Source of the DNA: an uncultured virus (IMG/VR IMGVR_UViG_3300031329_000004)
Lineage: Duplodnaviria; Heunggongvirae; Uroviricota; Caudoviricetes
IMG/VR virus record: IMGVR_UViG_3300031329_000004
Length of the DNA stretch: 64,000 nt
Strand: one strand, 5' to 3'
Part shown: positions 1-64,000 of the stretch, piece by piece
Position numbering within the stretch: position 1 is the stretch's first letter
Layout of the letters: every line of letters starts with the position of its first letter
The notes under the pieces: generated by a model
What the model saw: only the letters and a program-made list of their open reading frames with translations
What the model was told of the DNA's origin: nothing
The model's database searches: none
Program-made: the position numbers and the translations under genes

Positions 1-2
1 AA

Positions 3-3000
3 AAAAAACCTTTCAGTTTATTTAGGTGAAGTAATATGTGGGAATCAATGGATAAAGCTAAAGAAACTAATAAGTCATATAGAAATTCTATTTATGAACT
101 TAAACTTGAAAAATGAGATGATGTATCATATCAAGATATATTAAATATAGAAGATAAGTATAAACCAGAATGATTTAAAGATAATTTTACACATATTATT
201 TGAAATACTCTATTAAGTACAAATAACTCAGTAGACTCTATTAAAGAAACTGATGTAAAAAAGATTCGTGACATATATAAGTCTGAATGAATTAATACTT
301 GAGATTTTACTAATAAAATTAAAAATCTATTCCAGAGTTGAGATAATCAAATAAAATCTGATATAGATTCTGCTATTAAAGCAGAAGCAGACTACATGAG
401 ATTACTTACTAATAATTCAACTCTTACAGAACAGAATTTAAATGATTATGATTATTACAATAAGATATTAAACGAAACAGATATTCCTGCTAAAATTATT
501 GCAGATGATTATTCTTTTATGGAATGATATCAAGAAATGGTGAATTACTATTGAGAGAACTTAGCTAAAGAAAAAATAAAAAAAGATAATGATGAATATA
601 TAAAAGAAATACTTTTATTAAATGAGTTTGTTAAAAAAATCTGAAATACAATAGATTGATTAAATGATACATTTAAAGTTGATGTATCATGAATATGATC
701 ATGAACTTTTGTAGATAAATCCAAAACAGATATTACATGAAAAGAATTACTATTAAAAATAAACAAACTAAAAGATGTAAATGATAAAGCAATCGAAGCT
801 GCAACATGAATGAATAGAGATGAATATAATAAAGTAAATGAGATAGCTGATAGGAATACTGAAATCTGATCTTTTGATTTAATAACCACAAATGCCCTTA
901 AAGAATCAAAAGAAGTAAAAGATCAAATGATTCAATATGAATATCTATGATGATCAGAAAGAAGTACTAAACAATCAGAAATAATACAAGAGATTATAAC
1001 AAAGAATACTTTTGATAGTATAGAAAATAATATTTCTGATATTGATCAAAAAAATAGTGTATCTCAAATAAAAAACAATTATCTAGATGCAAAACAAACA
1101 TTAAATAGATTTAATGATAACGTAAGTAGAACTTACTATAGCAAAGTAAGTCAATGACTTTATCCAGACTTGCCAGAAAAAGAATGAAAAGAAGAAGTAA
1201 CTGAATTACTATTTAATCAATTAGAAGACTCTGAAAAAAGATTAATAAGACAATGACTAGATACTGTTTCTTATTCAAGTGCATTTATGCAAATAGCAAG
1301 ATGAAAGGACAATATGTCTTCGTGACTAAAAGAAATGGATATAGCAAAAGCTGCTCTATGAACCTGGAACTTTTTATCATGATTTACTGCTGTTGCATTT
1401 GAAACATGATGAGAGATAATTGAATCTTGAATAAAAAAAGATGATAAATTATTATGAGATGTAAAGTCATATAATTCATGATATATTAATGCAAATGAAT
1501 GAATTGTTGAATCTATGAAAAATATAGCAACAAATGATTTAGATGCTGTTATTACTGGTATATGATCAATATTATTAAATCCAAATAAAACATCTGTATT
1601 AAAATCATGAAGTTATATATGAAGATTAAATCAAGTAAATTCTCAACTTGAAGCTATTCAAGAAACATATAATAAAACATCAAAAACATCTAAAGTTATT
1701 AATAAATTAATTACTTGAAAAAAACTTAATTCAAGAGAACAAAATATTGTAAATAAAAATACTCAGATACTGAACCTTTCAAAAGAAAGATATGATATTG
1801 TTAATAATACAAAATATATAAGTGAGGTATCTAAATCAAAAGATTTTATAGATTGAAAGGATACTGAAAATATTATTGAAAAAATGAGGTTCTTTAATGA
1901 AACTAACTCATTAGCAAATAAAACAACTAAATTCATATGATTTCAGACCGATAGTATACTTACTTGATTCAGAGCTGATGCAGGTATCAATCAAGCACTA
2001 TGAGTGACTGTAGATGACCAAGTAGTGAAAGAGGACTTTTTCTTTAATATAATATGAGATACTATAATGTGATCTGTTGCTTTATGATTTTGAAAAAAAT
2101 TATTTAAACATGACCAAGAAGTTTCTGATATAATGAAAACACTTCCTTGAAATAAAGAATTATCAGAATGAATAAATCTGATTCAAAGAAGAATGTATGA
2201 TTTAAATGGATGAATAGTTATTAGTAAATCAGAGACACTAAATATATTAAAATCTAGTATGAGTGTACTAGGTTCTTTTTCGTCTAAGTCTGCAAGACTA
2301 GATAACTTTGATAACATAATAAAATTTACTGATGATGTATTATGAATGTCTCCTAAATCTAGCAATTCAGTAACTGACTCATGAATAATTATATCATTTA
2401 ATGATAATCTTTCTAAGTTTATAGATCAAAATAAAAGACTATCTTACTTCAATGACTTGTATAATAAAGCATTATCTAGTAAATCTCCTAGTAAATCTAA
2501 GAATGTAAATTTTTATAAAGCAAAAATAGAGCAGGAATTAAATCTTATAGAAGCATTATCTGCATCTGTAGCTAAAAAAGAAAAACTACTTTCTAAATTT
2601 AAACAAAATAAATCATCATACATGTGATGAACACTTAATATAGAGTCTAAGAATTTACAAGCTGAGATATATAAAAGTTTAGATATTAAGATTAATAAAC
2701 TTAAGAAGAATTTAAAATGAAATAAAAAAGTAGATACAAAAGACTTAATGAATTATCTTGAAGAAACTATATCAGAATATGATGAGTCATTTAAAGGCTG
2801 AAGAAAAATAACAATGTATGATACATATACATGACAAGAAATAATCATTGATGAAAAACAATATATAATACAGTCTAAGGCTTTATCTGAAAGAGAATGA
2901 ATATCTCTTAATGAAGCAAAAGAAAAAATATTAAAATCATGATGAATGTCTATTAACATGGATATGGTTTATGCTGATATAAAAGACTGATTATGAAATT

Positions 3001-6000
3001 ACAAAAGAATATATTGATTTTCTGATAAACAATTAATCAAAACAATCGAAAATAATTATGGGATAAAGATATCAAGTTTAGATATAACTACAACAAAAGA
3101 GATAAATAAAATTCAAAATTTTACTGAATGAAATTCTAAAGCTTCAAAAGTAAATAAAGATTTTTGAAGTACTATTGAAATTAGTCATCAATCTAAAACC
3201 AAATTTAATGCATCATTTTCTAAATGATCTTTTGATATTAAAAAAATAAAAGAATATATTTCTTCTTATTCTGATGAATCTAATCCTTTAAATATAAAAA
3301 AGTGAGTAGAGGAATTAAATAAAGAAATATCAAAACTCATTGATGATGTTGAAGTTACTGAAGCCATGATTATTTCTAAGATAGAATCAAATACTCCTAG
3401 ATTATTATTATCATGATCTACTATATTTTCTATAAATACTAAAGAATTACTTTCTTCTAATAGTGAATTTAAGTTAATGGATGAGGCAGCTCAAGAAAGT
3501 ATTTGAATAAAACTCAATAATATAATATCTTGATTCGAAGTAAAATACTACAATGATATTTTACAAAAAGAATTATGAGATTCTGTAGTATGAAAAACTA
3601 CATCATTATGACATTGATCAAAACCATATAAAGAAGTTTTAAAAGAAACATCATTAGGTAACAAACTCATCACCTTAACTCATTGAAGTACATTCAAGCA
3701 TCATGATGATAATTGGAATGAGATTATTTACATAATGCCATCTGGGTGATTAAAAAATAAAAAAGAATTTTCTCTGTCATACAAAAATGCTGTTGTTAAT
3801 ATGGATAAGAAAATGTCTGCTACTGCTGTATTTAAACCACTAAGAGAATATGCATTAAGTGTAATCACTGACCTGTGACGAATAAAAGAATATAGATGAA
3901 TAAATGATAATCTAGCAACTTATTATGATATAGCATCTGAAGATAATAAATTTAATTACCTATCATACATAAATGATTTATTTAAAGATTCTTCTAAGCA
4001 AGGATCAAAGAATATAGAAGAGGTTAAATCTATTATATCTTATTTAAAAAATAATATACTTGATGGTTGAGAGACTGAAATTGATATTGCTATTACAAAA
4101 AACTTTATTCATAATTTATTCTTAAATAAAAAATGAGTAGATTCTTTTATTCAAAACTATAGTGCTACAGATAACAATGCATTAGCATTAAGAAATATAT
4201 TATTATCTGATACATCATTAACTTGAATAATAAATAAGAAAACAAGTAACGCTATTGAGAAAGCAGATAATAAAATTATAGAAGATTTAATCAAAAAAAC
4301 TTATAACGAAGAAAAGTTTAAATTTGATTCAATATCTACTTTATCTCAATCAGAAATAAATAATTTAAGATTAAGGATTAAAAAAGCAAGAGATGATAAT
4401 TCTTCTGCTTCTACTTTGTTAGAACTTAATAATAAATTGAAGACACTTATAGGATATAAATCTAAAGAAAAATTTATTTCTTTTTCTGATTATAGAAAAA
4501 ATAATATTGGTATAGCATTATACCAAGACTTTTATAACAAAGTTCAATCTAAAATTATTAATGATGCAAATAAGTTTACTCATCAATCAATAAATAAAAG
4601 AAAAGCCGAAGCTAAAAAACTTATAAAATTAAATAAACTTTCTGTTAAAGAAAGGAATAGAATAGCAAAAGAACTGCAAGCATATTCTGATTTATGAGAT
4701 AATTTAGACATAACAAAACAGATAGAAAAATTATATCTGAATAAGTCTAAAGCAAATGTAGTTATAAAAGAACACAGAAAGGCTCTTAAAGCTCTTGAAA
4801 ATACATTAGGTAGTAATGTATCAGATGATGAAAAGTATCGTCTTATGGATGATTATATGATGTTAAATCAAAAAGAATTAGATGACATGTATATCCTCCT
4901 CAATAAAATTGATTCTATAGTTGTTCCTTGAAAACCTAAAAAACCTAAAGAATCTAATTTAAAAGACTTTCCAGAACAAGTATATTTAGATGTAAGTGAC
5001 AATGATCTCAAATCATTAAGATCTGAACTTGTAAAAACTATTTCTAATATAGAAAAGTCTTTCAATAAGATAAGAGAAATAGATAGTTTAAAAGAAACTA
5101 ATTCATTCAAATATTCTATAGAAGAAATTAAAAAAGTTTCTGAAGAAATTGAAGAACTAAAATTAACGAATGAATCCTTTAATGATTTATATTCTAGTAT
5201 TAAAGTACATATAGATAATGGTAGTGATATAAAAGACTTAAGATTTCAAAACACAGCAGCAGATGAAATCACATATGTTATAAATTGAAATACAGAAACT
5301 ATAAGCTTCTGATGAAATTTATCTCCTAAACAAGTAGATGCTTTAACTTCTATACTAAGAAAGATAGAAAAAAATAATGCTTGAGTTACGTGACTTAAAT
5401 TAGATATAGAAGAAATATCATCAATATGAGATGATATACTTCAAGAGTCTGAAGTATCAACTGTTATATATAAAGATATAACAGATTCATTATTTTTAAA
5501 TTACACCTTACGAGATGAACATTCTATAATTGACTCTGCTTTTAAAGATGCATATTCTAAGAATGTAGATTGAGTTCAAAATTTTTCATGAAGAGAACTT
5601 ATGTGAATGCTTTATAAAAAAGAATGAAGTGATTTTAGAAAATTTATAGATTCACTCTATGTGACAGATATATCTAAAATAGAATCTTACTCTAAAAAGT
5701 TTGAAGTATTCTTAGAAGATATATTAAAAAACTCAGAGTATTCATACAGATGAATAGACTGAGTTATTACTACCTTAAAATGAAAAGATATAATTCCACT
5801 TATAGATATAAAAAAACTAAAAAATAGATTTGCTAATATAAGAAATCAAGACAATGGCGAAGCTGTTTTAAAAATGTCTAGCTGAATTAACTCAAAATGA
5901 TTTTTGGAATTTGAATATTGATCAACTCAATTTTTAGATCTTCCTATTATTTATAGGAATATCAAAGAATCTAAATGAACTTCTATTTCTAAAAACCTTA

Positions 6001-9000
6001 GATATATAGATTGATTTTCTATAAAGAATTTATCTAGATTCATGAAAACTGCTGATTCTATTAAATTCATGAAAAAAGAACAAAGAGTTATTTTTGATGA
6101 ACTTACTAAAAAGAATTATATTTGAATAATTAATTGAACTGATTTTCCAGAAAATTTCTCTTCTGGTTGAAAAAAAATCTGATGATATTGATTATCTCAA
6201 AAACTCAGATCTAATCTAAAATTACAAGAATGAGAAATACTAGGTTTATGATTCTGAAATAAAGATGGCTTTACTTTTGTATATAAAAATACAGATATAG
6301 ATTTTTCTTGAGTTTCTTATCAAGATAGAATGAAAATAACAGAGCTCGCATATTTTTATGATATGTGAATAAATGCTTGATTCATTAATATAGATATTTC
6401 TGAAGCTAGAAATTTATGGAAATCATTTATAAAAGATTTTAATTCATCTTCTAAAAAAGATTTTGATTCATTTCAAAAATATCTTTTTGAGTATAAATGA
6501 AAAAAAAGTAAATTAAAATTAACAGATATTATGTCTGGTTCAAAACCAGATAAAGATCTAACTGATTTTGAGTCTTGAAAGAAATCATTCAAATCTAGTT
6601 CTGACAACATTAAAAAAAGATTAAGTAGTTCTTCTTCTACTAAGAATTTATTTCAATGATATAAATGAGAAAAAGCTATATACGATTGAGATATTAGTAG
6701 TTACTTAAAATCTAATTGATTAAAAACTGTAATCATAGATGAAGTAAAAGAAGATTGATTACTATCAATCATGGCACAATGAAAAAATAATAAAGAAAAA
6801 ATTTCTTTATTTAAAGAGTATGCAAACAATCCAGAAAGATTATGGAACATAGATAAAATTATTAATAAACCAATGGATGATTGATCTGAATTAACAGATG
6901 AGTACATCCTAAAAAGAATTGATAGATATTATTTATCTGACTACGAAGATGGAACTTGATATGCAACTCGTGATATATGAAAAATAAATAAACTCATTAA
7001 TAATTGAAGTGATACTATAATAAAAACTCATATACAATGAACATCAGAAAATTGAAAAGTTAATTTATGAAAATGATTAATCAATACTTTTAATATAAAA
7101 CATAATTGAAGTGACTTATCAGAAACATTAATTATCTGAAAATGAATGCATAAAATAAAATGAGATTATTTAGATTTAAGTTCAGAAAAACACACTATAG
7201 AAATAAACTGAAAAATGTATAATGTTATATGAATAGATGATAATGTAGATTACTCTTATTTTAAAGAAGCAACAAGCACATCAGCTAAGACTAAAGAAAT
7301 GGTTTCTATAGATAGTATTATCTGAGCATTCGATCAAATATATGTTGATGCATTCCATGATCTCACTAAAAATAAAATAACAGATCTTGTTAAAAACTTT
7401 GAAAAAACATATATATCTGATGGTGAATTACCAAGTCTTTATTGAGACTTAAATAGAATTATTAAAAAGCTTTATGAAACAAGAGATGAGATTCAGTACT
7501 CAGATCAATATTTTAAAAACAAGTTTAATCAGTTATTTTCTGATATAAAAAATGTTATTGAAGAAACAAGAACTGAATGATATTGATTTAAATCTTTTAA
7601 ATTGGATCCTAATCTACATCCTGATACTGTAAAAATACATCCTGAGAATCCTCTATATAAAAAGATAGAAAAAGAATTTGAGTGAGACAATAAATATATT
7701 GTTATAACGAGAGCTCCTGTATCTGATAGATATGTAAGTGGTTTATATAAAATAGTATTAGATGATACTATGGATAAAAAGCATATAAAGGTTCATCCAG
7801 AAACTGGTTTAGATAAACTAAGACTTGATCATGATGGTGACACTGTAACAGCATATAATCCAAAGAAAGAATATGGTTCTATATTAACAAGAGCTGTTTA
7901 TTGAAACGCTCAATTATTATCTCCTAATGACATAGTAGATGGTAAGAAACTTATTGATATGAATGATGATGAGTTTTTTACTCATATAGATAATAATTAT
8001 GATTTTGAAAATTGAGTAAGACTTAATGATTATATTGAAGCAAAAGAGGTAGATGAACTTACAGGTGAAGTAAGTAATGAATATACATCATTTATAAGTA
8101 AAACTCTTATAGCTCAACAAGCTGATAAAGATATATCTATTTGAGCATCTTCTGTAAGAACTGCTGATATAATGAATAGATCAGTACAAAGAATAGTAAG
8201 AGCTTGAAGTAATAAAGCTAATATCGAATTTAGCAAACTAAATCCAGATGTACAACGTGCAATATTAAAATGATATTTATGAAAAGATATTCATGATATA
8301 CATATATATGAATCTATTATTAGTTGAGATCAATCTAAGTTTATTGATCAATTAAATAAAGAATGAATGCCATGAGGAAAATATTTTATTGATGGGAAAA
8401 ATAAATATTCTATTACTAGAATGTTTAACGAAATAAAAAGCAAAGCATGAAAAGAAATATTTTTAAAAAAAGTTAAATATAATTTAACTAATAATAAATG
8501 AATTACTCTACCATTAGGAACATCAATAAGACAAATAAATTTAGAGCATAGAAAGCTATCTAATTTTAGATTAACACAAGAAGATTTAGAAAAACTATCT
8601 TTAGTAAAACAAGATAAAAGATTTGCTGTAGAATGATGAGAAGTCCTCAATACATTCTTTGATTTCGCTAAGTCATGAAAAGATTTTATCCCAGAAGACT
8701 TTGATAGAAAAATGGTTGAGCTTATGTTTCCTTGAGTTGATTATGAGAAGATTTCTCCATACCTAGAAAACATAAGTAAATGAAACAAAGTTCAATGGAA
8801 GTATTGAGTTAATATAACGGACCCACAATTCCAAAGAATTTTAAGTGACGATGTTTCTTGAGATATATCTTCCTTATGGAAGTTTGCTCATGACTCTTTA
8901 AATGATTATTTAAAAATTCAAGCTGCATCAAATGAAATTCCATTTCTTTTAAAGAAATATAAAGAATATTTATCTCCAGAAGAAATAAATACTTTTGATG

Positions 9001-12000
9001 AAATATTTTATAATAAGTGACTTGATGTATGAAGTCAGAAAGTAATTAATAGTATTATAGAAAACAATAAATCAATCAGTGAAATAATGTTTGCTAAAAC
9101 TTGAAGTCATATTGATTCTATTTCTTACTTAACCAATAAACAAAAAGAAAACTTATATGAGCATATAAAAAATAAAATACCTAAAGAAATTAAAGATACA
9201 TATATAGAAATATCTACATATCAAGATTTAAAAAAGAACACAAAGAAGTTTTTCAATCAGGTATTAAAACTTAGAGAAAAATGAACTGATGAAGATATTA
9301 TATATATGACGTTATTTATAAAGACTCTAAGTGCAGATTTCAATAAAACAATGAAGACTCATAACACTAATAATGTATCTATTCAAAATACAATGAATGA
9401 TAATATTATAAAACAATATATTGAATCTACTGTATGAGTAAAAGAATCTATTATTAAAAATAGTTTTAAGAACTTAGATATAGATACAAAGAATGAATAT
9501 CTAGAAAAGCTTTCGTACATTTCAGATAATTTAAATAAACAAATACAAAAAAAGAATACATATATTAGTGAGATAAAAGATAAATTTAAAATTAGTTCTC
9601 AAGATTTAGATATTGAATATCAAGATAATGTAAAACTTTTAGATGAGTCTTATAATGATTTATTAAACAAAAGTCTTGAGCTTGAAAAAATGAATCAATC
9701 TAAAAAATCTTATTTTATAAAAAAAGAAAAATACGATTCTGATTTAAAAAAGTATTACGATTCTAAAAAAGAATTAGAAAAAACTTATTCACTTAATAAA
9801 AGAGAAGTAAAAGAATACGAAGATATGATTTTAGAAATAAGTCGTATTAAAATAGAAGAATCAAATCTTATTAAAGAAGCTCAGTCTATACTATGAACAA
9901 CTACTTCTTCTAAAGAAGATATTGCTAAATTATTAAAAGACAGAATAGGTGAATTAGATGCTAATATAGAAAGATGATCAGACGAGTTTTTATTAGAATT
10001 AAAGCTATGACAAGAGAATATAATTTTAGATTGAGATTCATATAAGATAATTTCTTGAGATGAAACAAAATCTTATAAAAGAGTTTCTGATTATACTAAT
10101 GCTAAATTTATTGCTAAAGATAAAAAGCTACTTAAATACTCTTCTGATATATGAAGATGAGCTGAAGCCTTAATTAGAGATGTGTTTAATAATAAGAAAA
10201 AAGTAAATCTTTTAGATTATCCAGGATTAAAAACATTTAAAACTGAAAAATCATTTAAAGAATTTATATCTGAGATAAAAAGATTACGAGAAGATTTTTC
10301 AAAAAAATGAGAAGTTTTATATTCAAAAGATATAAAGGTAAAGGATGATGTATTATGACTTGCATGAGAAGTTAATCTTGTGACTAAAACAAAAGATGGT
10401 AAATATAAACTTTATGATATAAAGACAGTTCGAGATACATCATTTTATGATTTAAATGTTTCTAAAATAAATGAAAATAAATGAAATCAACTTAGTATGT
10501 ATTCTAATATTATAGAAAGAAATTATAAGATTGATTCTAACCCAGTAGTTATAGATGAGATTAATGTTATTATTTTTAAAGCTAATTATGATGAATGAAT
10601 TAACTCTATTAGTTATTCTGAAATAATTCCTATAAATAAAAAGAATAGTGTTTCTGAAATAAATGATGACTTATTATCTAACTGAATAATTAATACTGAG
10701 GAAATACTCAGCCCATCTTTATGATATGACGAAAAAATAAAAACTATATCTAGGTATATTCAAAATACTAACACTCAAATTAAATCTTTAAATAAACAAA
10801 TAGATAAAAAAGAATTAAAGATGTCTGAAACATTAGTAGAAATTTGAAATATCATTAAAAAAGATTTATCAAATATTAATCCTAGAAATGTATTAGATTA
10901 TAAAAATTCAGACATTAAGGAATTACTTGCTCGTAAAAACAAAGTAGATGAGCTATACAGAGAGGTAGATGCATTAGAGGGGGTAACTACCACTAAAACT
11001 AAAATGAAAGCTCTAGTAAAGAAAAAATGATGAATGCTTGTACAATCAGATATAAAATCTCCTATTATTTGAGATATAAAAGATTCTTATGCTTGATGGT
11101 CATGAAAAATGTCTGAAGAGATAATTAATGATTTGAAGTGAGTGACTGATACATATAAAAAAATGTGGGACTTTCAATATATAGATCAGATTCAAAGATT
11201 AGATCCTGAGTTTTTAAATAGAATAAATGCTATATCTTTTCATATGTGAAATGATTTTAAAGTATTTAATAAAGCAGCAACTCAATGGGACTCTATAATA
11301 TCAGAATTAGATAAATGACTTGCTGACATAAACATTTCTTGAATATGAAAGATAAAACAAACATTTAATTTAATAAAAAGTAAAATAACTCCTAACTCAG
11401 ATAGCTCTCATAATATCTGAAGAAAGTTAAAAGAGTCTATTAACCAGGCACTTATTTGAGAATGAGGAGAAATAATTTTCTCTTTAGAAAAAATGAAAAA
11501 ATTATTTAAAGAAAAGATAGTTTCCTTAAATCAAACTAACCTTGTATATGATGAGTTTATTTGAAACGATAAAGAATTAATTAGTATGTTGTCTTTAGCT
11601 TTTCCAGATTTAAAGAAATCTGAATTGACTGTATGACATATTCATTACATATATTTATCTCAAAATAAAAAGTTAAATACTAATATAGATACCTACATAA
11701 ATGAAACAGTAAGTTATTCTGTTGCTAAATTAAATACATTAGATTCTGTTGTATGAGAACCATTACAATTACTTCAAAAATATTCAGGTTCAAATAGTCC
11801 CAATAGAAGCTTCTGATGGAAAGAAAATCAACACTCTTCTTTATTATTAGATGATATAATTGAGTCAGCTAAATGAGATCATAACTTAGCTATTATTAGT
11901 TTAGGAATATCCAATATAGATGACTTCAAAAAAAGACTTATGGATAAATGATTCACTGAGAATCAAGCACTTACACTATATAGTGAATTATATAAAAAAG

Positions 12001-15000
12001 ATAATTCAACTGGTCAAAGATTCTTTGATTTACTTAATGGTATTAATTATATGATTAAGTATTGATATGCTAATACATTGCATTATGCAGGTACAATATC
12101 TGCTACTATTCAAATGCCATGACAGTACACTGAGATAATGACTCGTAAGTGATCTTTCTGATGAATATCAGATATAGAAATTTCAAAGATAAGAGCAAAC
12201 ACTAAGGTTATGAAATGAGAAGATACTCATATATTTGCATCTGGTATAGCTTTGCAAAACAATGACAACCCCTTTGCTAATTTTTGATCTGATTTTATTT
12301 CTAATCAATTCTTTAAATTAGATAATTTTATTGAAAAGAAGTATGGTATTGATACAGGTTTATGAATGAAAGTAAGATGAACTATAGATTTATTTACAAA
12401 TCCATTATGAAAGCAAGATGCTCCATTTGATAATATAAGAAAAGATGCAGCAATAAAACAAGCAATGTTTGAAAGTTGATATAAAACTTATGAAGATTTA
12501 ATACTCTCTGTAGATAAATTTTGAAAATGAGAAATGATTCGATTTGAAACAAAAGCTCGTATGATTTATAATGAATTATGAGGATGAGTATCATCTAAAG
12601 ATTCGTTATATAAAATAAATAAATTATTCAATTTACATTGATATTCTAATAAAGAAGATATGTCATGATTTGCTGCAATGGCTATGAGATCTTGGCAGAA
12701 CCTTTGAGGATATTTAGCTCATTGGATGGCAAATAAAACAATGAGAAATGTTGAGATAATTCAAAAACTTACAAGAGCAGCAGCTCATGGTGACCTGGAA
12801 GCTATATGACAACTTACAAGAGTTTCACTTTCAAGAGCCAGGAACATTGCTTACATTGCTACTATGTGACTTAAGTATGATAAACTTCAAGATATAGATA
12901 CTACTAAAAGAGATTGACCATTAGCTCTTGTAACTACATTAGCTAACGATGTTGTATGAGTATTAGCATTTACATGATTTGCTATACAAGCTCATGAAAG
13001 ATCAATACTTATGGATGCGTGACTATGAGAAGAATCATTAATAATGTTACAATCATTTACTTGAAGATTTACAGGTTCATTAAATGTAGTACCTAATCTT
13101 ATAGATAGTTTATACTCTCAGTTAGTTTTAAAGAATTGGAATAAAATGTCTATATGAGAAAAGAACTTATTTATTATTGAAGCTGTTATGCAAACAATAA
13201 AAGATAATGGATGAAACTTTAATAGATATTCATGAGTAAATAAAAGTGAATACTGAGAATGAAATATATGATTTTCATATAGTTCTATTACATGACAATG
13301 AGTATGATGACAAAAATGAAAGATAGATTCTGATTTATGGTTAGATAACTCTACCCAGAAAGATATAATCGCATTAAGATCCGAGTGATGGATACCATAT
13401 CTAAAACATATTAGTAAAGCATTAATTTGAGATAGATTATTTAAGAACAATGTAACCTATGAAAATAGGCTCTCAGCAGAACAATATGTTTCATTGAGGT
13501 CTAGTATAGCTCTTAAAGAAATAGATGATGCTATGCTTTGATTATCTGATACTAATTGAGTATTTAATGTATTACATTGAGATAGATATTCTAATCCTGA
13601 AGATATTATAACATTCAAAGTTCAATGAAAAGATAAAGAGGTACATAGAAATGATGTTATACTTATGAATGCTTTTAATTCTTATTACTTTGCAAATGGT
13701 AAGTTGTGACTTGAAAAACTTAATCCCGATGGAAGTAAGAACTGAGTCACTGATAAAGAAGAAGCTGCAAGAAGAAATATAATGAAAGATACATTCTGAG
13801 ATTTAAGTATTCCGTATAATATCTATATAGAAAATTGATGAGTTCAAAAGTTTGATCAATGGGTATATGAAAGAATAGTTTCTATGTGACTTAATTCAGA
13901 AGAATGAAATATAATGTTATGAGAACACGAAGTGGCTATTCCTGAAATAACTGATTATATTATAGATAATGAATTTAGTAATAAAAAGAAACAATATCTT
14001 ATAGACACTTATTGAAAAGATCACTATTACAAATGATATGATTATGATGATATACCAGATGTAGAAGAAATGATTATGAAAATTAATATCTATAAGAACA
14101 TGCCAGAATTAATATCACTTGATAGATGAATAAAACGAGTTGCTGATGGTGTTGCATTGTATTTAGATGAAACCATACAGGAATCTGTTTATAAATCATC
14201 ATGAGCTTATTTACCTATCATGTGGAAAGACGAAGACAATGAAATGTTCGATCAAGATAATATGTTATTAACGTGACAGGTTGATGTAGATAAATATCCT
14301 CAATCTAAAGAAAGTCATAAAGTCTGATATAGGATAAAACAAAGACTAGAAAATAAACTCAAAGAAGATGATCTTACAGAGTACATGATTTCCAAATGAG
14401 AAACGTGAGAATTAAGTAGCTCTTTAAAAGTACTTTCTAATACATCTAGAGATGCTTGAACATTAACAAAAACATTTGATAAGATTAAATCAAGAATGAC
14501 AGATAAAGAATTTGCTAATTTCAACTTGCAGTTTTTAGATTCTATGAACTCTAATATAGCGAAGAAGTTACATTGAAGCAAATTTATGGAAAACCTTAAA
14601 GAATCTTGATTGGTATCTGAATATGTTAATTATATGTACGCCATTACAGATTCTATAAAAGATTATGATCCTGAAGAATCGTGAACTGGTAAAAGCTGAG
14701 ATTACATATGAAGTAGTTTTAATTGATTCTCAAGATACACATGACAGAATCAATGATATAAATGAAACTATTGAACATTTTCTAATGGGCAATGACTAGC
14801 ATCAGAGTATCAGCCTATAATAAAATATGTTAATGACAATAGAGATATGCTGTATGATAATCCACATAAAGTTATTCAATCTTATATAGCAGATATTCCT
14901 TTTATTCCAACAAGAGCTTGATTAAAAATCGCAGATTATATTCTTCCAAGAATAAAAGAATTAAAGATTTCTCCATCTTGAAATGTTATTAAAGAAACTG

Positions 15001-15158
15001 GTGGTTCAATATATGTAAAAGATAATGTGACTTACAAAAAAATTAAAAAAATTTCTAAGATACGAGTAAGACAATCTAAAGTTAGAAGTAGAATTAAATA
15101 TTCTAGGAAAACTAAGAATCTACTCAGTGGTTTAGTATATGGAAAACAAGACTTCTAA
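3..15158 (+). CDS. Giant virion/ejection polyprotein (>5,050 aa, 5'-truncated by the window) containing a two-barrel DNA-dependent RNA polymerase and a degenerate PD-(D/E)XK domain
   Basis: One frame (positions divisible by 3) is open with TGA=Gly at every line I spot-checked; I did not check every codon. It contains track ORFs 4416 and 9690 and ends TAA at 15156-15158. Motifs: VITRAP (7701), KVHP..LRLDHDGDT (DHDGD at 7827-7841), EDGTG (6945), LGKGL (7065), YDIKT/QLSMY (10413/10488). Confidence 0.88.
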
Positions 15159-15174
15159 TATTTAAAATAAAAAT

Positions 15175-15561
15175 ATGGACGAGAAGAACCTACCAACAAA
15201 AGCATTTACTCCTCTTGAGATAAAGAATCTAAAAGATTTGATATCTCAAAAGGGAATAGTGTTCGAAGCAGAACTTATAAAAGCTATAGAAGAAACAGAT
15301 CTCAATGATGATTGATTTTGATTTGATGCTATAGGTATTGTTAAGAGATATGCTAAGACAGCAGATAATGCTATGAAAGTAAATCCTAAAACTTGAGATT
15401 TAATTCCAGATGAGGAAACGAGAATGAAAGCGCTAGATAAAATGACAAAGATATTGTTGTGACAATCTTGAGCTTCTAAATGAGTAACTGTAAACATACA
15501 GAATAATACAAACCTCTGGAACACTTGAATACCAAAGCCATGAGAACATTTAATACATTAA
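15175..15561 (+). CDS. Probable terminase small subunit
   Basis: 128-aa ORF immediately upstream of TerL; helical PDEETRMKALDKM segment and a C-terminal VTVNIQNN strand, as seen in TerS proteins. Confidence 0.6.
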
Positions 15562-15573
15562 TATATATTCTAG

Positions 15574-17661
15574 ATGATAAGTCTAAAAAACATTGAACGA
15601 CCTAGTATATTAACTCCAAAACAGCACCAATTAATCTTGGGGCTGATTTGAGGTTTAATAACAACAAATGATCAGATCAAAGAAAATAAATCTATTTATG
15701 GTTGATGCAATTCTGATTACAAAGTTCTTGATAAGCAATTAGCAAGAGAGATAGATAATTATCCAAGTGTAAATAGAAGATTAAAAACAAAATCTATGGC
15801 TGAGTATTTAGTATGAAAGACTCAGACTATTCCTCTTATATGATCTTGAATCAGAAATGAGAAACATAAATCACTTGATGATGTTATAGTAAAATATTAT
15901 CTATATCCATTCTTTGAAGATAAAACTACTATATCAGATAATATTTTATATATGTGGTTTGATTTATTTAAAAATGTAAGAGTTCAGAAAATATCAGATG
16001 GTCACCTTAATATGTATATATGAGATGAGCCTATGGATATGTTTCAATTCCATGATAATATTCCATTTGCATTTGAATACTATACAGATTTTTCTAGAGA
16101 TAGATTACTAGAAATAGAAATAGCTCTCTGATACACTAATAAAACTATTGGTGACCCAACAAGAGGATATTGATATACACATATGCTCAGAGCGAATGTA
16201 TGAGAACATATGGTAATGCCTGCAAATGCTATAAGACTTATAAAGAATTGGAGATGGTTCAATGTATATCTCACATCTCGTAAACAAGGGAAGACAAGTT
16301 TTGCTGCAGATAGAATTGTAGCAGAACTATTATCTGAAAAAAGATGATATGGTATGCGTAAAAATAGAAGAATAAAATTCTTTACTGATAATGCAGCAAA
16401 GGTCTGAACGGAATGTATGCAATTTATTGCAGACTTTCTATGAGACTTAGTCAAACAAGAAATTTCTCCAGGTGTAAAATATTTTGAAATAAGAGAATCT
16501 AAGCAAGAAGTTATCTGTAATCTTACAGGTAACTCTTTTGCTGTTGTATCTTTAAAGTGACTACAATGAGACTCAGATAATTCAACAGGTGATGGACTTG
16601 CATGTGATGCAGCAATTATAGATGAGTGATTCAGAATAGGATATAGATTCTGGAAGTCATTTAGAGATAGAGCGAAAGAAGAATGTGAATGGATATTATT
16701 TATATCTACTTTAAATGAAGAAACTGAAATAGGCCATTGGGCTTATGATGAACTTATAAAATGAGAAGCTTGATGTAATCCAGATTACAATACTGTGAGA
16801 TCAAGTGACTTTGATAATTCAGTTACATATCATAATAACTTCCTAAAGAGATGACTTACTCTCAAAGATTTTTATAAATATACATGGAATAAATTAAAAG
16901 AAAGATTAAAAGAAACGAATGAAGAGTATATCATGAAAAGAATACTTTGTTGAATACTCTCTGATAGGACTTTATTTGATGTCACAGGACGAATAGCTGC
17001 AGTTAATGATAAAGCTGTACAAACAGACTTAAGAGTTATCTGAATCGATATGTGAGGTCTTTCTGACCATGTATGAGTATGTGAGTTTAATGTACGAAGA
17101 CTTATAGTTGAGAAATGATACTCTCATAAAATAGATGGTGACTATCAAAACTGTTTAGTAATAGCAAGAGAAGCAAAAGAAAAATATCCAAACTGTATAA
17201 CTGTATGAGATAGATGATGACCTGTATGAGAAGCTGTAGCTATACTAGATAAGAAAACACAATACATAGATTACTGGATTAAAAGTACCGGTAATAGTAG
17301 TGGACTCAATGAATTAGATTGATACTACACTATGAAAAAATGAGTCTTTGTTTTATCATGAGCCTATGCGCTTACAAACATTGTTAAAATTATGATGAGT
17401 TGTACAGATCTCATTACTCAATTTTGAGATATGGAAATGAAAAAATCTACAAGATGAGGAACTATATTATATAAAGCAAAGAAAGGAAGAAAAGATGATG
17501 CAGTTTTCTGATATCTAAATGTATTCTGATTGCTACGAATCATATTTCAGTTGCTATCAAAAGAAGACATGATAGACTTTGCCAAGCAGTACTGAGAATC
17601 TGAAGTAATTGCTGTAGACGATAGTGACGAAATTTACTATACAGGATGAATGACTTATTAA
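15574..17661 (+). CDS. terL: Terminase large subunit
   Basis: Walker A TSRKQGKT (~16273), Walker B AAIIDEG (~16610), IST coupling motif, RNase H-like nuclease motifs GIDMG..SD (~17041) and KDD (~17490). Confidence 0.93.
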
Positions 17662-17679
17662 TTTATAATTATTACTACT

Positions 17680-18231: not shown

Positions 18232-18255
18232 TTTATATATTTAATAAAAGTATTT

Positions 18256-20145: not shown

Positions 20146-20146
20146 T

Positions 20147-21116: not shown

Positions 21117-21143
21117 TTTTAAATTTAAATACTAAAAAATATT

Positions 21144-22565: not shown

Positions 22566-22591
22566 GCTTTAAGAGAAGTCTTATGACACAA

Positions 22592-22630
22592 GAGGCTTCC
22601 TAAGCATATTAGGAAGTCTCTTTATTTTTT
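22592..22630 (+). terminator. Intrinsic terminator after the capsid gene
   Basis: gaggcttcctaa-gcata-ttaggaagtctc followed by tttatttttt. Confidence 0.85.
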
Positions 22631-22642
22631 AAAAAATTACAT

Positions 22643-29348: not shown

Positions 29349-29376
29349 AAATCCTTATTTATTTAATACAAAAATT

Positions 29377-47132: not shown

Positions 47133-48698
47133 ATGATAAAAAATATTACTCTTAAATGAGTTCGAGGAATCTCTAAATCATTTGAATTGAAAGAATGACT
47201 TAATAATTTTGTATGAAAAAACTGAACTTGAAAAAGTACAGTCATACAATCTATTACTGATGCATTTCGTTGAGAAAAAATTCAAGTTAAGGAATGAGAA
47301 ATGACATTGAATTATGATGATAATATGATTCAAAGAAATGCTAATCGTTTATTCTCTAGTCCTAAATCAGATATAGATTTAGTTCTTCCTGGATTTCTTA
47401 TGTGAAAACATAAAACTATCAAGGGGGTAAACTCCACTAATGAAGAAAGAAGAATTACTGTAAGTAACTTACTAGGTATAGATAGAACTAAATTCTTTCT
47501 TGATGCTTGAATAGATTATGATCTTAAATGAGCTATGGCAGAACTTCGTGACATGAATACTAAAAGTAGTACTTATGCTGATGAGTTAATAACTCTTGAA
47601 TCAAAAAAATCTAAAAAGCTTACAAAGCCTACTGTAGTAAAACTCATACAATGATCAGAAGAAAAAGTAGAAAAATGAAATGCTTATGAATTAGAATCTC
47701 TTAATAATTCATTATCTAATCTTAGACTTAAATGGAAGAAAGTTCCAGAAGAACCAACATCTATTGATAAAATAGATTTTATTCCAGATTCAGTTATCAC
47801 TGAATGAAATCAATCTGAAATTGATTCTATGAAAAAACAACTTGCAGAAATTGCTGCTAAGTGACAAAACATGCCAGATATATGTGAAGCATGTGGTCAA
47901 ACTATTCAAGATGTTGAGTCTGCAAAAGCAAAGTTACGACTTGAATATACACAGCTTTCTACTAATATTAATAATACAAAAGTTATTGATAGAGAAGTTC
48001 AACCATCTAATCTCGAAGCTTATAATAAAAATGCTAATGATATAGCTGATTATAATCTTGAAGTTCTTACAAGAAATAATATTATAGAATCTAATACTTC
48101 TATTGAAGCTGAAGCTAAAGAAATTCAATCTAAAATAGATAATTTCAAACTTGTTAAAGATACAGTTATTCCTGCTGTTATATGAAATGATTCAGAGTAT
48201 CAAGACTATCTTGATGCAGATAGAGCTTATGCTCTTGCTCAACAAGAATCTAAATGAATTAAAGATCGTATCAAAGAAACTAAAGCAAAAATCAAAAGTC
48301 TTTCTACTGAAAAACTTGAAGATAAAATTGAGGCTTATAAAGATACTGAGCTTGCATTCGTTGAATCTGTAGATAAACAACTTACTGTTGGTGATGTTAA
48401 ATTTGTATTCTATAAAGCTAATACAAGTCCTAATGCTACTGAACCATACGCAGCAGTATTTGATATACTATATAATTGAAAAAGTTATACTGAACTTTCT
48501 GGATGAGAACAAGTAATTGTTGATGTTGTTATTGCTACATTATTCATAAAGAAACTTACTCTAGATTTTATCCTTATAGATAATGCAGAAATTAGTGACA
48601 GCAATATTAAAATGCTCATGAAAGAATATCTTGATTGAGTTCAAGTTATATGTACAAGAATCTGAACATCTCCTTTAACTCTAAAACATACTATATAA
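47133..48698 (+). CDS. SbcC/Rad50-like ABC ATPase with coiled coil and zinc hook (copy 1)
   Basis: GKNGTGKST, CEAC hook, LSGGEQ signature, ILIDNAE Walker B. Confidence 0.88.
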
Positions 48699-49745: not shown

Positions 49746-49980
49746 TTGATTTATTATCAATATAATATATATTCTTATTGTCATCATCTAGAATCACTAT
49801 GATGTGACACCAACAGAGGAGAGACCCTATATGCGACATAATGTATTCCGGTCCATCGCAAAGCACAACAGAAAGCAATATGCTCTGATTGTTGCTAAGA
49901 TGAAAGGAGGTGATCGAATCTAAACGATAGGCTAACCCCCTATCATAACTTGCCGGAGATTTATTCTCTGGCTTTTTTTT
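49746..49980 (+). other. Stand-alone small transcription unit: promoter, structured RNA and/or 30-aa basic peptide (49831-49923), terminator
   Basis: TTGATT-N16-TATATT; higher GC; GAGGA upstream of MRHNVFRSIAKHNRKQYALIVAKMKGGDRI; GAAAGGAGGTGATC at 49902-49915; terminator gccggaga/tctctggc plus T8. Confidence 0.6.
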
Positions 49981-59148: not shown

Positions 59149-59674
59149 ATGTTACAACTAGAAGCAGACAAAGATTGTTTTGATACAGTCATAGCATTGA
59201 AGCATGAGATACAAGCTATAGCTTCTATCTATCAGAATGATTGAGAAGTAAACCTAACTCAAATGCTTAATCATAATCAAAAGATTATGGATGTTATGAC
59301 TACTCTATCATCAATGAAGTTTAGCTTAAAAGAAATCAAAGCAGAAACAAATAATTTTTTATCTTCTAATATATAATGATGAAACAATTAATATTTATAA
59401 AACATAAAGATCCATTCAAAGGAAGACAAACTCTTCCTGTAAATGTAAACTGAAAAATAATTCATAACAAATAATTATGAAAGATATTTTTAATATAAAA
59501 AAAACTCCTGCTACTACTGAAGCAATAAACAAACTCATTACTAAATGGACTAATCTATTGCTTAAGTATGAAACAATGAAAGTTCCAATACAAAATAAGA
59601 CACCTTCAAAATGAAGAGTGTCTGTACCTGTAAATATATTTAAGAACTGAAAGCTTATTCAAATAAATAAATAG
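59149..59674 (+). CDS. Three small hypothetical genes (59149-59376, ~59376-59474, 59477-59674)
   Basis: Tandem code-25 ORFs; the last two share a KGR...PVN..NGK.I ending. Confidence 0.5.
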
Positions 59675-59695
59675 TTATGAAACTCTAATAACTAT

Positions 59696-59723
59696 TTGCT
59701 TTTAAACATACTCCGATTATTAT
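59696..59723 (+). promoter_or_regulatory. Sigma70-like promoter
   Basis: TTGCTT-N16-TATTAT. Confidence 0.55.
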
Positions 59724-59751
59724 ATATCAGTATATTATAACAACCTATACT

Positions 59752-60075
59752 ATGAATGATGTATATGAAATTCAATTGATTGTAGGAAAGAACATCTCTA
59801 CTAAAAACATTGCAGACAATAATGTATCTATCTTCGTAAGTATTCCAACAAACCTATATAATGTTATACATAAATATGTAAACAAAGTTTTGGAATTACA
59901 TCTTACTAAGTGAGGTACATCTTTTATATTGAACTGCAATATTAATAATGATGGATCTACTCCTATAATGTACAATGCAAAAGAATGACATTGAGTTTTA
60001 AAACTTGATGTAATACTAGAAGATAAAATGGTACTATGATATATAGTATCATCTGATTTATTCCTTAAGATATAA
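59752..60075 (+). CDS. Hypothetical protein
   Basis: 107-aa code-25 ORF. Confidence 0.6.
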
Positions 60076-60080
60076 TCCTT

Positions 60081-60596
60081 ATGTGATATTATACTAAGCA
60101 TGAAATAGATTTGACTCCAGAACAAGAATGTAAAAAAGATCAGTATCTTAAAGAGATAGAAATAATCTCTTGATACTTCAATCCTTTTGAAAATGTATGT
60201 AAATGGTATGAAAGATCTACTGATATGTGTGCATTCTCTCTACTACATCCAGAAGAAGTATTTACTATCTACTGACATTGAGAAGAAGACTTAGATAAAT
60301 GGATAGCATACTATCATAATTGAAATGAACAACAAGAGAAAGCAGAAATATCTATAGTATATCCTGAATATAATTCTGATAAGCTACTCAATGTAGATTC
60401 TACTTCAATGAATAGAACTGTTAAGCAGGCTCTCAAAGATTATAATACTATAGTCAATTCATCTATGACTCTTGAAGTTCATAAGACAGTTACACACCAA
60501 ACTTATAAGTGTACTAAATGTTTAAAAACATTCTCCGAAGACGATGTAGAAGTTCAATGAAGATGTCCTAAATGTTTTGAAGATAATAATTCCTAA
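60081..60596 (+). CDS. Conserved phage protein (MGYYT...KWY...GHGEE..D.W) with C-terminal zinc ribbon
   Basis: Family pattern plus CTKC...CPKC. Confidence 0.7.
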
Positions 60597-60609
60597 TCAT
60601 ATAATCCTT

Positions 60610-62025
60610 ATGATCAAATCTATAAAGATAGATTACCCAGAATACTGAGTCAAAGTATCAGAAACATTCTGACCTTGAGTCAATGTATTAGAAAAACCTA
60701 ATGGATATGGTAAGACTATAATCCTTAGAACTATTCTCTCTGCATACTCTGGAACATTCATATGATCTAGAACTCTTCCATCTGGAAGTGCTGAGATAAT
60801 CCTAGACGACAAGACTCTTATGATGTCTAAGTCTATGTGGATTGGAATAGACAAAGTGAATGCTATAGCAAAACATATAATGCCTTGAGCATTTATGGAT
60901 CTCTCTACTCCAGAACAAAGGAAGACTATTGTAGATCTCTTAGAGATAGATAGACTCTGATTCTTATCCTCAGCTTTTGATTGATTCTTATCAGCAAAAG
61001 GTGTATGAGAAAAACAAGAAGATGGTAGTATCATTACTACTATCAAATACTCTGACACTCTTGCTAAAGAAACAAAGCAATCTATTGCTGAATCTAAATG
61101 AAAAGAAGATCAGCTTCTCTCAGATATTACTAGGCTTCAATGAAATATTAACTCATTCAAAAAGAAAGAGTTTAAAGACATTGATAACTATAATATCTTT
61201 GAACAAGAAGTAGTAAGACAATGGTCCGAACTTGTATCTGGCCATCAAGAGAATGTAAGAAAATCTAACTCAGATAAATCTTTATTAGAATCTAATAAAG
61301 CTGCATTACTCAAAGAGTATTCTGTATTACAATCTCAACTTAATGGAACATGTCCTACATGTAATCAATCTATAGATGTAGATACTACAGCTATTAACTC
61401 TAAGATAGATCAGAATATTACAGAGTGAAAAGAGATCGCAGATAAACTTAGTAAGTTTAAAACTCTTGATGCTCTTCCTATTCTTAATACCTTAGAAGAG
61501 AAAGCTAAACATCTAGCAATGGAGATTCCTAAGAAACCTGCAGAAGCTAGATATACTGAGCAACATGATTATAATAATCAATTGCAATCTCAGAAGTTTA
61601 CCAATGAAGAACTTGAACTTAAGAAGAAAGATCTTCGTGAACTATGAGAACTAGATAATCAAGCTGTACTAGATTGTATAGATAGAGCTCAGAAAGAATT
61701 CACTAAAACTCTTGAAAAGAAAATCTCATCACTCTGATTAGAGATTGAATTATTCAAGACTCAAAAGAATGGTACAGTTAAAGAAACATTCAATGTATCT
61801 TTAGATGGTAAACCATACTCAGAACTCTCTCAATGAAATAAGATTATCTTACAAGTAAAGATGGCTCTTGTATTCATTAAGAAGTTATGACTAGACTTCA
61901 TGCTCATTGATGAAGCAGGTACACTAGGACAAGAATCATTTGATATGATTGTTAAAGCTTGTAGTGAATTAGATTCTAATATCCAAATCATTGCAATGCG
62001 ACCACCATACTTCAAAGTAAAATAA
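60610..62025 (+). CDS. SbcC/Rad50-like ABC ATPase with zinc hook (copy 2)
   Basis: KPNGYGKT, CPTC, YSELSQGNK, MLIDEAG. Confidence 0.85.
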
Positions 62026-62070
62026 TCTTTAATCATTCTAAGTCTACAAAATTATTGAGTAGATACATAG

Positions 62071-62106
62071 AGGGCAAGTATAATTACTTGTCCTTTATTT
62101 TATTTA
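62071..62106 (+). terminator. Intrinsic terminator
   Basis: agggcaagta-taat-tacttgtcct followed by ttattttattt. Confidence 0.75.
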
Positions 62107-62196
62107 TTAAATATTCTATTATGAATGACATAGAAATATACAATGAGTATGGTCTATTAAAAGACTGAGTATCTTATTTTAATAATCATATCTAAT

Positions 62197-62391
62197 ATGA
62201 AAGTACAAATACTAACAGAATATCATCTTAAAAAAGTAATAGATACATTTAGTCCTTTAGGATTATTCTATGCTTATATAGATTGATCATGGATCTGAGT
62301 AGATAATTCTACTGCAGATTCTTGGACCGAAGAATTCCAATCAAAACAAGAATGTCTTGATTGGCTTCTTGAAGAACATCCTATTTATAAA
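62197..62391 (+). CDS. Conserved small phage protein
   Basis: WIGVDNSTADSWTEEF...CLDWL. Confidence 0.7.
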
Positions 62392-62397
62392 ACTATT

Positions 62398-62889
62398 ATG
62401 ACAGACTACGAACAAGAAGCTCAAGACTTTCTTGATGCTACTAACACTACCATCACTAAGAAATTTCTTATGTATGGTCTACACTTTCCAGAAGATACTG
62501 ATGAGAGGAATATCTGGGAGATTACATTAACCAGATGACAACAATCATATACTTATAAATTCTGAGATAGTATTAATAACTCTCAGATAAAAGATAAAGC
62601 TGCTTTTAATAATCTATCAATTAGTAGAAGAAAGTATGTATCATCTTATATGTGAAATTATAAATATCCTAGAAAAGAGAATCCTAAAAAAATTCCTCCT
62701 ACTAACTGTAGTGTAATCTCATGTTTCTATATATGTGATGAATCATTTGCAGACTTCTGTGACTCTATGTGATATGACAGAGATTCTATTAAAGCTCTTG
62801 ATATATATAACAATGTCATGAAAGAAGTGAGAGAATTAAAATCATTATTCTCTCCAAGTGAATTAGAAAAGCTCCAAGAAATACAATAA
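62398..62889 (+). CDS. Conserved phage hypothetical protein
   Basis: FADFCDSMGYDRDSIKAL.IY pattern. Confidence 0.7.
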
Positions 62890-62905
62890 CATTTAATTAT
62901 ATATT

Positions 62906-63349
62906 ATGAAAATAGCTATCAACAAATGTTATGGATGATTTCAATTATCTATAATGGCTCAGAAAAGAATCGCAGAGATTCTATGAAAGACAGCATACTT
63001 CTTTCATAGAGAATATGATGATGATCTTAATGTGACATATACTCTTATGGATTACCAAGATCTCAACAACAAAACTTCTACTATGTTAGAATGTTATACA
63101 GTATCAACTCTTCCAGATGATATAGATACTATATCAGATAAAGATTATGATGCTATAACTCTACCCAATTATACAGACTATGATAATAGATCTCTTCCAG
63201 AACTTATACAAGTAATAGAAGAACTATGATCAGATGTATCTAATCATATTTCAAATATTAAAATAGTAGAAATTCCAGATGATGTTAAATGGCATATAAA
63301 TGATTATGATTGAATAGAAACTATTCACGAAGATCATAGATCATGGTAA
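62906..63349 (+). CDS. Conserved phage hypothetical protein
   Basis: INKCYGGFQLS...LIQVIEELG...IVEIPDDVKW.I.DYDG.E.IHE.HR.W. Confidence 0.8.
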
Positions 63350-63456
63350 TGAGTCTACAAAATGCTAGACTAAATAGTTAGACCGTAGCTTACAGCTACA
63401 ACACAATAATTCTTTGGATGCATTTCATCCAAACTTATATTCCTAATTTTTCCATT

Positions 63457-63825
63457 ATGAAAAATGCAATCGCAAAACAAGAAGCACATATTATGAATCT
63501 CTTTAATCTTACTCCAAAAGATATCTACTCTGAAAGAGAATTTCCATCTAAAGAAATTACTGACCAAGAAACTTGAGAAGTAAAACAATCTTGAAGTATG
63601 AAATCTATTTCACTTAAAGGTCTTATTAAAAACAATGCTATATCTTTCAAACTCTTTGAAAAGAAAGATGCTCAGATTGTTAAATACAATCGTGATACTC
63701 AAAAAGAGAACTTCGTAGTTCTAGATAAAGCTGCACTTGATTCTGATTTACTCCAGATACAAGCAATGCTTTCTAAAAGAAGTTCTAAATCTACATATAC
63801 TGTAGAAGACTTCTGTGAGGTTTAG
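63457..63825 (+). CDS. Hypothetical protein
   Basis: Track ORF 63598 extended upstream through TGAs (DQETGEVK); followed by a hairpin at ~63827-63868. Confidence 0.7.
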
Positions 63826-64000
63826 CCTAACCCATAGCTCAAGAATAATTTCTTGGGCTTTAGTTAGATTATATCCTAAAACAAAAACACAAATGATTAC
63901 ACTAGTAATACTATGCCAGAACTTATTCTGGACTCCACATAACACGAATCCTAGAGTTATAGAAGCTTGCGAGATAACTTGGCAAGAAACATATCCAGAT

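Follow-up and report, generated by a model that had tools for sequence, protein, structure and literature searches.

The locus and its coding capacity

The 64,000-nucleotide stretch of DNA analyzed here (hereafter, the window) comprises positions 1-64,000 of the 73,045-bp IMG/VR record IMGVR_UViG_3300031329_000004 (hereafter, G000) from an uncultured tailed virus; its GC content is 27.8%, and its genes come into view when TGA is read as glycine, that is, under genetic code 25. Unless stated otherwise, all features lie on the plus strand. From position 1 to about 59,610, the window belongs to an incomplete tailed-phage genome (phage A), in which open reading frames (ORFs) cover 11.9% of the sequence under code 11 and 90.5% with TGA read (calculated over 1-59,147). 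The remainder, 59,611-64,000, continuing to position 73,045 of G000, belongs to a second phage (phage B; 17.8% vs 88.5%) and matches G001, a separate IMG/VR contig of 60,427 bp that is 98% complete, was found by pattern search, and represents the phage B genome. A 433-bp segment common to the two phages (59,178-59,610) is the likely assembly join. The gene sets used below (60 genes in the window, 67 across the 73,045-bp record, and 40 in phage B) were hand-picked from ORF scans.

The initial annotation of this DNA, made from the sequence alone, proposed that it was recoded throughout, that nearly every gene would be missed by standard-code annotation, and that a comparison of coding density across codes would reveal this; all of this is borne out. 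With code 11, ORFs of at least 100 amino acids account for 12.2% of the window; this share is 20.5% when TAG is read and 89.7% when TGA is read, compared with 1.6-5.5% in ten base-shuffled copies of the window with TGA read. The longest ORF has 473 amino acids under code 11 and 5,040 with TGA read. In-frame TGA occurs in 59 of the 60 window genes (98%; 870 TGA vs 395 GGN codons) and in 39 of the 40 phage B genes, and is as dense in early and replication genes as it is in late genes. Under code 11, a single window gene out of 60 would remain at least 80% intact. The genes end with TAA (60) or TAG (7), and contain 24 in-frame TGATGA pairs (both counts for the 67-gene set); the three ATG-TGA gene starts noted initially (29,377, 39,690, and 60,081) are present as well. 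Shine-Dalgarno-like words precede none of 52 window gene starts and one of 37 phage B starts.

The in-frame TGA codons are not artifacts of sequencing or signs of decay, because the same sequence recurs unchanged in other metagenome runs. We compared five such runs (X1-X5) as assembled Logan contigs: no substitutions are listed for window positions 15,100-25,000 in X2-X5 wherever this region is covered. Three runs, all of them 2019 salt-lake metagenomes, contain at least half of the words of the same region; one of these is possibly the source of the record, and the three perhaps belong to a single campaign. Among the runs listed for this region, none is an RNA data set. Run X2 covers phage A and hardly any of 59,620-64,000, and the uncovered part was not counted as evidence.

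TGA encodes glycine and TGG remains tryptophan

TGA occupies glycine positions in conserved motifs of unrelated families: the Walker A motif GKNGTGKS of an SMC-like ATPase (47,214; three TGA codons), RKGVNP of HU (37,343), WIGHIPG and WGENPADYGRK of RNase H, GDVGLGNVDN of a tail fibre (30,592; three TGA codons), and IGGISYL of DnaB (43,312), where the two adjacent glycines are encoded by TGA and GGT. The initial annotation had pointed to these glycines and to Walker A motifs in general; the listed instances stand, but the generalization to Walker A does not, given that the glycines of three of the four such motifs, in the terminase TerL, DnaB, and a second SMC-like protein, are encoded by GGN.

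Profile alignments, which had also been proposed as a test of codon meaning, favor glycine and not tryptophan in both genes that were scored. For DnaB (43,024-44,550; 27 TGA and 5 CGA codons), the profile was built from 102 cellular homologues found with TGA masked, with the self match and three tryptophan-rich phage matches left out. Placing each amino acid in turn at the TGA sites gave the best score to glycine (277.9 bits), followed by serine (271.1), with tryptophan (251.4) in 14th place among the 20 residues; four of the seven TGA sites in columns at least 70% conserved face glycine. For RNase H (38,916-39,575; 12 TGA codons), where the search query was translated with code 25 and 112 of 119 matches were kept after removal of seven tryptophan-rich ones, glycine again scored best (207.3) and tryptophan lowest of all 20 (162.7). 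Four RNase H TGA sites face glycine in 111-112 of the 112 rows and one faces alanine, whereas five of the seven TGG sites face a near-invariant tryptophan; in a solved RNase H structure aligned with TGA masked, glycine stands opposite X in KTXE, KWXE, and DYXRK. More generally, PHROG scores are higher under code 25 than under code 4 for 14 of 14 proteins. When TGA, TGG, CGA, and CGG are masked in the alignment of 18 orthologue pairs, TGA faces GGN 44 times, TGA 90 times (45 pairs), and TGG once in 215 counts, and TGG faces TGG in 38 of 49 counts; TGG, as these alignments show, still stands for tryptophan in this DNA. Pulling the other way, three of the seven well-conserved DnaB sites face proline, valine, and arginine.

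These comparisons bear on the view that TGA encodes tryptophan, as the protein database we used assumes by storing a tryptophan at every TGA, including all 27 in DnaB, or else that the genes have decayed. Code 4 would yield proteins with 5.1% tryptophan and 2.1% glycine, as opposed to 0.7% and 6.5% with TGA as glycine; together with the ranks of tryptophan in DnaB and RNase H and the unchanged recurrence of the sequence in other runs, this makes the probability of either variant negligible. TGA is the main glycine codon, and, as a practical matter, the database entries for these phage proteins are mistranslated.

One record, two phages

The window had initially been described as a whole phage genome. 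This does not hold: G000 is linear, with end repeats not found, and is 52% complete according to CheckV. The frame of the first gene is open to base 1, and the database copy of its product is 90 amino acids longer, so that the window starts inside a gene; its right end falls inside a primase-helicase gene. Moreover, from approximately 59,150, the sequence is that of phage B: positions 59,130-73,045 of G000 are 99.87-100% identical to G001 over about 14 kb, with only short or diverged matches elsewhere. G001 carries separate versions of the terminase, portal, capsid, tail, and giant genes; its terminase, portal, capsid, and giant proteins are 26-38% identical to those encoded in the window (34% for the portal and 27% for the capsid). 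With its open ends and duplicated modules, namely, two amidases, two SMC-like genes, two phrog_6306 genes, two HU genes (identified by eye), and a DnaB alongside a primase-DnaB fusion, the record is not a single complete phage genome.

We consider it very probable that the record is a chimera of two related tailed phages misassembled at the shared 433-bp segment. The competing explanation is that the record is a real recombinant, in which phage A acquired 14 kb of phage B by crossover within this segment. In its favor, the same runs contain both phages, which are colinear around the join, with an M23 gene immediately upstream in both (G001 has its own copy upstream of the shared stretch), and a 72,871-bp ENA contig, known by that gene only, also carries the phage A giant gene. 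The assemblies, however, argue against a crossover. The segment 59,178-59,610 forms a separate contig, branching on both sides, in X1 and X2. A contig in X4 joins 215 bases of other sequence, via the shared segment, to sequence extending to 59,859; its loose 215-base end, which is not in G000, is the sequence of the G001 upstream gene, and this contig bridges phage B from left to right. Among the contig pieces listed (53 further pieces were not listed), none bridges phage A on the left to phage B on the right. When other contigs were scanned for the shared segment, only G001 was returned. In X1, the shared contig has a depth of 20.5, about what its two flanks give when added (10.0 and 8.2); this is a weak indication, because contig depth does not measure copy number. 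The duplicated lysis, SMC, and helicase genes likewise fit a recombinant poorly, and we regard this scenario as unlikely. The record should, accordingly, not be handled as one genome.

A side observation in X2, where the shared segment has a depth of 28 against 6.7 for phage A (depth being a weak measure) and other contigs match short motifs from the window, hints at a third related phage in that run.

A capsid gene devoid of TGA

The gene at 21,144-22,565 is predicted to encode a major capsid protein of the HK97 fold (its model, with pLDDT 56, matches a Vibrio phage capsid in Foldseek at E = 5.6e-12). It is the sole TGA-free gene among the 60 counted and appears codon-optimized. None of its 36 glycines is encoded by TGA, against a genomic share of 0.68 (p = 1.6e-18); TTA accounts for one of its 24 leucines, ATA is avoided too, and C-ending codons for phenylalanine, tyrosine, asparagine, and isoleucine rise to 0.39 from 0.21. 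The phage B capsid, 27% identical to that of phage A, is also TGA-free (none of 33 glycines, against a share of 0.59; p = 1e-13), and three of seven database capsid relatives look nearly so. The joint shift across several codon families suggests translational selection on the capsid gene, with TGA likely being a non-optimal glycine codon.

The pattern is not universal, and two observations count against reading it as a general property of these phages: four of the seven database relatives use TGA, as indicated by 10-15 tryptophans against 2-4, and the partial capsid gene of L001, a 2-kb syntenic code-25 relative from metagenomes, has TGA at three of nine glycines, so that the purge is not family-wide. 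Should the capsid pattern hold, GGN would be translated better than the reassigned codon even in genomes that use the latter most often for glycine, a point relevant to the way in which the capture of a stop codon is sustained. Liu et al. (PMC10746230) argued the reverse. Among the sources we searched, only that paper and its preprint touch on the optimality of TGA; the Zenodo tables of the former and the bioRxiv supplements were outside the search.

A giant protein with polymerase-like motifs

The first gene of the window (1-15,158; 266 TGA codons) encodes a protein of 5,040 amino acids from its first ATG (5,130 in the database copy) that is, on the evidence of motifs and a weak fold match, likely a virion-injected two-barrel RNA polymerase polyprotein. 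It contains K-x-H...G-K (7,023-7,076), R-x-P (7,707), and DHDGD (7,827), the last retained as DxD[G/A]D in five of five aligned relatives. A search with residues 2,201-2,900 against 1.84 billion representatives returned seven matches, including the query itself and two tryptophan-rich proteins of 3,811 and 4,261 amino acids. In an alignment of phages A and B with four database relatives, R-x-P and DxD[G/A]D are present in all six sequences, and K-x-H...[G/S/A]-K in all five that cover this region. A structural model of the polymerase core (pLDDT 44) is best matched by RNA polymerase largest subunits, QDE-1, and p97 N-domains, all of which share the double-psi barrel fold; the matches (E = 2e-4 at best) are local and each takes in a single barrel, in Pol IV, Pol II, beta-prime, QDE-1, or p97. 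No PDB chain matched the polymerase region by sequence. Two features of the model detract from the assignment, namely, its low confidence and the fact that p97 N-domains score as high as polymerases. By analogy with gp66 of the crAss-like phage phi14:2, the giant protein is likely to be a virion RNA polymerase; no virion polymerase was found for CPR (candidate phyla radiation) phages in the literature searched.

Some relatives of the polymerase core (P0243-P0246 and P0249, the latter being DAV49625.1) are normal in glycine and poor in tryptophan as stored, and may come from standard-code phages or have been translated with code 25. Downstream of the core, within the giant protein (10,356-10,430), we noticed by eye the motif GLAGEVNLV...LYDIKT, which resembles that of PD-(D/E)XK nucleases.

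Other genes and features

Immediately downstream of the giant gene, a likely large terminase (15,574-17,661; 36 TGA codons) has no Pfam or PHROG match of its own, and its phage B orthologue, about 36-37% identical, matches Terminase_6N at E = 9e-5, over the cut-off. The terminase and the predicted HK97-fold capsid place the phages, by sequence and model, in the Caudoviricetes. Between the terminase and the probable portal of phage A lies a gene for an Acb1-family (anti-CBASS-like) 2H phosphodiesterase (17,680-18,231; Pfam PF23474, E = 1e-25), for which tblastn gave no match in G001. The portal (18,256-20,145), which has no profile match, is labeled by position, being syntenic with genes in G001 and L001 and similar to the former. 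Tandem DDV(V/T)T repeats stand at the start of what is probably the scaffold gene (20,463-20,680); the syntenic L001 gene has EE-rich repeats there.

Further downstream are a tail fibre or receptor-binding block with a possible holin, the latter spotted by eye (27,489-35,422; PHROG tail fibre, E = 3e-23 for 29,377-31,842), an Amidase_2 endolysin (35,916-36,848; Pfam E = 8e-24), the RNase H and DnaB genes discussed above, and the gene for the SMC/SbcC-like ATPase with the Walker A motif in which all glycines are TGA (47,133-48,698).

Each phage has one copy of the sequence AGGAGGTGAT, and there is no other in the 73 kb (window 49,746-49,980, plus strand; G000 68,700-69,000, minus strand, equal to L082 2,880-3,110). 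The copies stand at the ends of short TGA-free ORFs of 30 and 44 amino acids. Both ORFs have their own Shine-Dalgarno-like site, of a kind that other genes of both genomes lack, include K-G-G-D, and have a hairpin and a T-run after them; they could possibly be ribosome decoys or leader peptides. A second AGGAGGTG lies in an intergenic region of phage B (G001, L084 14,611 and 18,881; at about 64,600 in G000), near low-complexity C/A-rich DNA (65,000-65,750 in G000) that may be an origin or a genome end.

The host and the decoding of TGA

UGA is read as glycine in Gracilibacteria and Absconditabacteria (PMC8629427), with proteomic proof (Hanke et al. 2014, PMC4032931), and release factor 2 is missing from BD1-5 genomes (Sieber et al. 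2019, PMC6851277). In code-25 phages of code-25 hosts, TGA occurs in about 90% of the genes, vs 26-71% in code-switching phages (10.1101/2021.08.26.457843). The tRNAs of G001 are limited to tRNA-Met and tRNA-Pro, and in the phage B part of G000, tRNA-Pro(TGG) and tRNA-Met(CAT) lie in tandem at 70,526-70,679; no TGA-reading tRNA and no PCRF release-factor domain was found in either G001 or G000. Some "SeC/Stop" tRNA calls produced by ARAGORN at a low threshold had long, implausible folds and were rejected, and there was no Rfam match in the window. Given that TGA is present in 98% of the genes and that G001 has no UCA tRNA or PCRF domain, the host itself likely decodes TGA.

A different possibility is a standard-code host, with phages that switch the code by means of a suppressor tRNA in the manner of the Lak, crAss, and Agate phages. 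The closest named relatives of the RNase H, at 32-40% identity, come from Bacteroidota and Bacillota, and the scarcity of Shine-Dalgarno sites also fits Bacteroidota. Yet, the recoded codon is not confined to late genes: TGA is equally dense in early and replication genes, three genes start with ATG-TGA, and the gene free of TGA is that of the capsid, a late gene, which is the reverse of the code-switch pattern. With no UCA tRNA and no release factor in the 98%-complete G001, we consider code switching highly improbable.

A code-25 bacterium is, accordingly, the best inference for the host, and it can be narrowed further. In Absconditabacteria, CGA and CGG are predicted to mean tryptophan (Shulgina and Eddy 2021, PMC8629427). 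In the 67 genes, CGA is used 56 times, and CGG three times, too rarely to be tested. At residue 421 of DnaB, encoded by CGA, arginine is present in 95 of 100 rows, and arginine gives the best profile score (277.9 vs 271.2 for tryptophan); in the 18 masked orthologue pairs, CGA stands opposite TGG in none of 12 cases; and reading CGA as tryptophan lowers the best PHROG score in five of five proteins. CGA thus behaves as arginine, not as tryptophan, and since this departs from the prediction for Absconditabacteria, Gracilibacteria are favored, as far as codon use can tell. Most of the clearly code-25 phages in print have been assigned to Absconditabacteria (PMC10746230), which is the case for a host of that lineage (SR1); set against the behavior of CGA, it leaves such a host improbable. 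CGA usage could serve as a cheap discriminator between phages of the two lineages.

Several points weaken this assignment. In the PHROG comparison, the readings of CGA differ by just 1-6 bits, and tryptophan at CGA raises the scores of some secondary families; phage A is incomplete, and a suppressor tRNA could lie in its missing part; and no prophage or host-named homologue link was obtained, no spacer search having been made. A peptide-pattern scan of 185,579 GTDB genomes found no capsid relatives, and a GTDB scan with RNase H found 80 loci, none of them TGA-recoded; the L056 locus, when followed, pointed to a phylum with the standard code. The initial proposal of a gracilibacterial or absconditabacterial host is thus favored as to a code-25 host and narrowed by CGA, but not by any direct link.

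An evolutionary scenario

Taken together, these observations make it probable that the record combines two related tailed phages, likely misassembled at 59,178-59,610, in which TGA is the main glycine codon and is likely decoded by the tRNA-Gly(UCA) of a gracilibacterial host. Such a host would lack release factor 2 and supply tRNA-Gly(UCA), as published for Gracilibacteria; the phages would have drifted to the AT-rich code of the host and become locked out of standard-code cells. If TGA is decoded less efficiently than GGT and GGA, then the major capsid protein, the most abundant one, would have been purged of it. The giant protein would enter the cell with the DNA and transcribe the early genes, a role that the virion polymerase has in crAss-like phages.

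Extending this scenario, we tentatively suggest, at somewhat less than even odds, that these phages belong to a so far undescribed podovirus family of Gracilibacteria whose members inject a two-barrel RNA polymerase of their own, 4,000-5,000 amino acids long, and in whose hosts TGA is a slow glycine codon purged, in two phages, from the capsid gene alone. If so, the expression level of genes in uncultured code-25 bacteria could be read from their TGA density, and slow decoding of TGA would contradict the published idea that dense TGA reflects codon optimization, as suggested by Liu et al. 2023 (PMC10746230).

Comparison with known systems

Searches with nucleotide and protein sequences did not connect these phages to any described genome, the Zenodo tables of Liu et al., which may hold relatives, being outside the search. 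Peptide-pattern scans of IMG/VR with the terminase, the capsid, a capsid alignment, and DAV49625.1 gave no relatives, and tblastn against 50,697 GenBank phage records gave no match for the terminase, DAV49625.1, or the M23/SLT protein; the amidase was matched in 40 of these records at less than 60% identity, with 32-44% for the 15 among the matches listed. The terminase, portal, and capsid have no PHROG match, and hence there is no support for membership in Crassvirales. The giant protein resembles gp66 of the crAss-like phage phi14:2 (10.1101/2020.03.07.982082) in being a very large protein encoded next to head genes, with a DxDxD-type motif and a predicted double-psi beta-barrel; it differs in size (5,130 vs 2,180 amino acids), in the motif itself (DHDGD vs DFDID), and in being a predicted polymerase.

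In-frame stop codons in phage genes are shared with the Lak, crAss, Agate, and Jade phages. There, however, TAG encodes glutamine or TGA encodes tryptophan, in 26-71% of the genes and with a bias toward late ones, often with a suppressor tRNA or a release factor, whereas here TGA encodes glycine in 98% of the counted genes and such machinery was not found. Another parallel is provided by the Gracilibacteria/BD1-5 code 25 (PMC4032931, PMC6851277, PMC8629427), which has in common with our phages UGA as glycine, a GC content of 28%, TAA and TAG stops, and CGA as arginine; unlike those genomes, the DNA is viral and no tRNA-Gly(UCA) was found in it, and the code was read from sequence.

The closest likeness is to the already published phages and prophages of Gracilibacteria and Absconditabacteria that use code 25 (Liu et al. 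2023, PMC10746230; Borges et al., 10.1101/2021.08.26.457843). Their existence shows the initial statement that few such phages have been characterized to be exaggerated; for phages of code-25 bacteria, the recoding itself is unsurprising and has been published before. The present phages share with them dense TGA as glycine in about 90% or more of the genes, the near failure of annotation under code 11, and, as far as searched in G001 and G000, the lack of code-switch machinery; they differ in the salt-lake source and in a capsid gene without TGA, which runs counter to the suggestion by Liu et al. that dense TGA is codon optimization.

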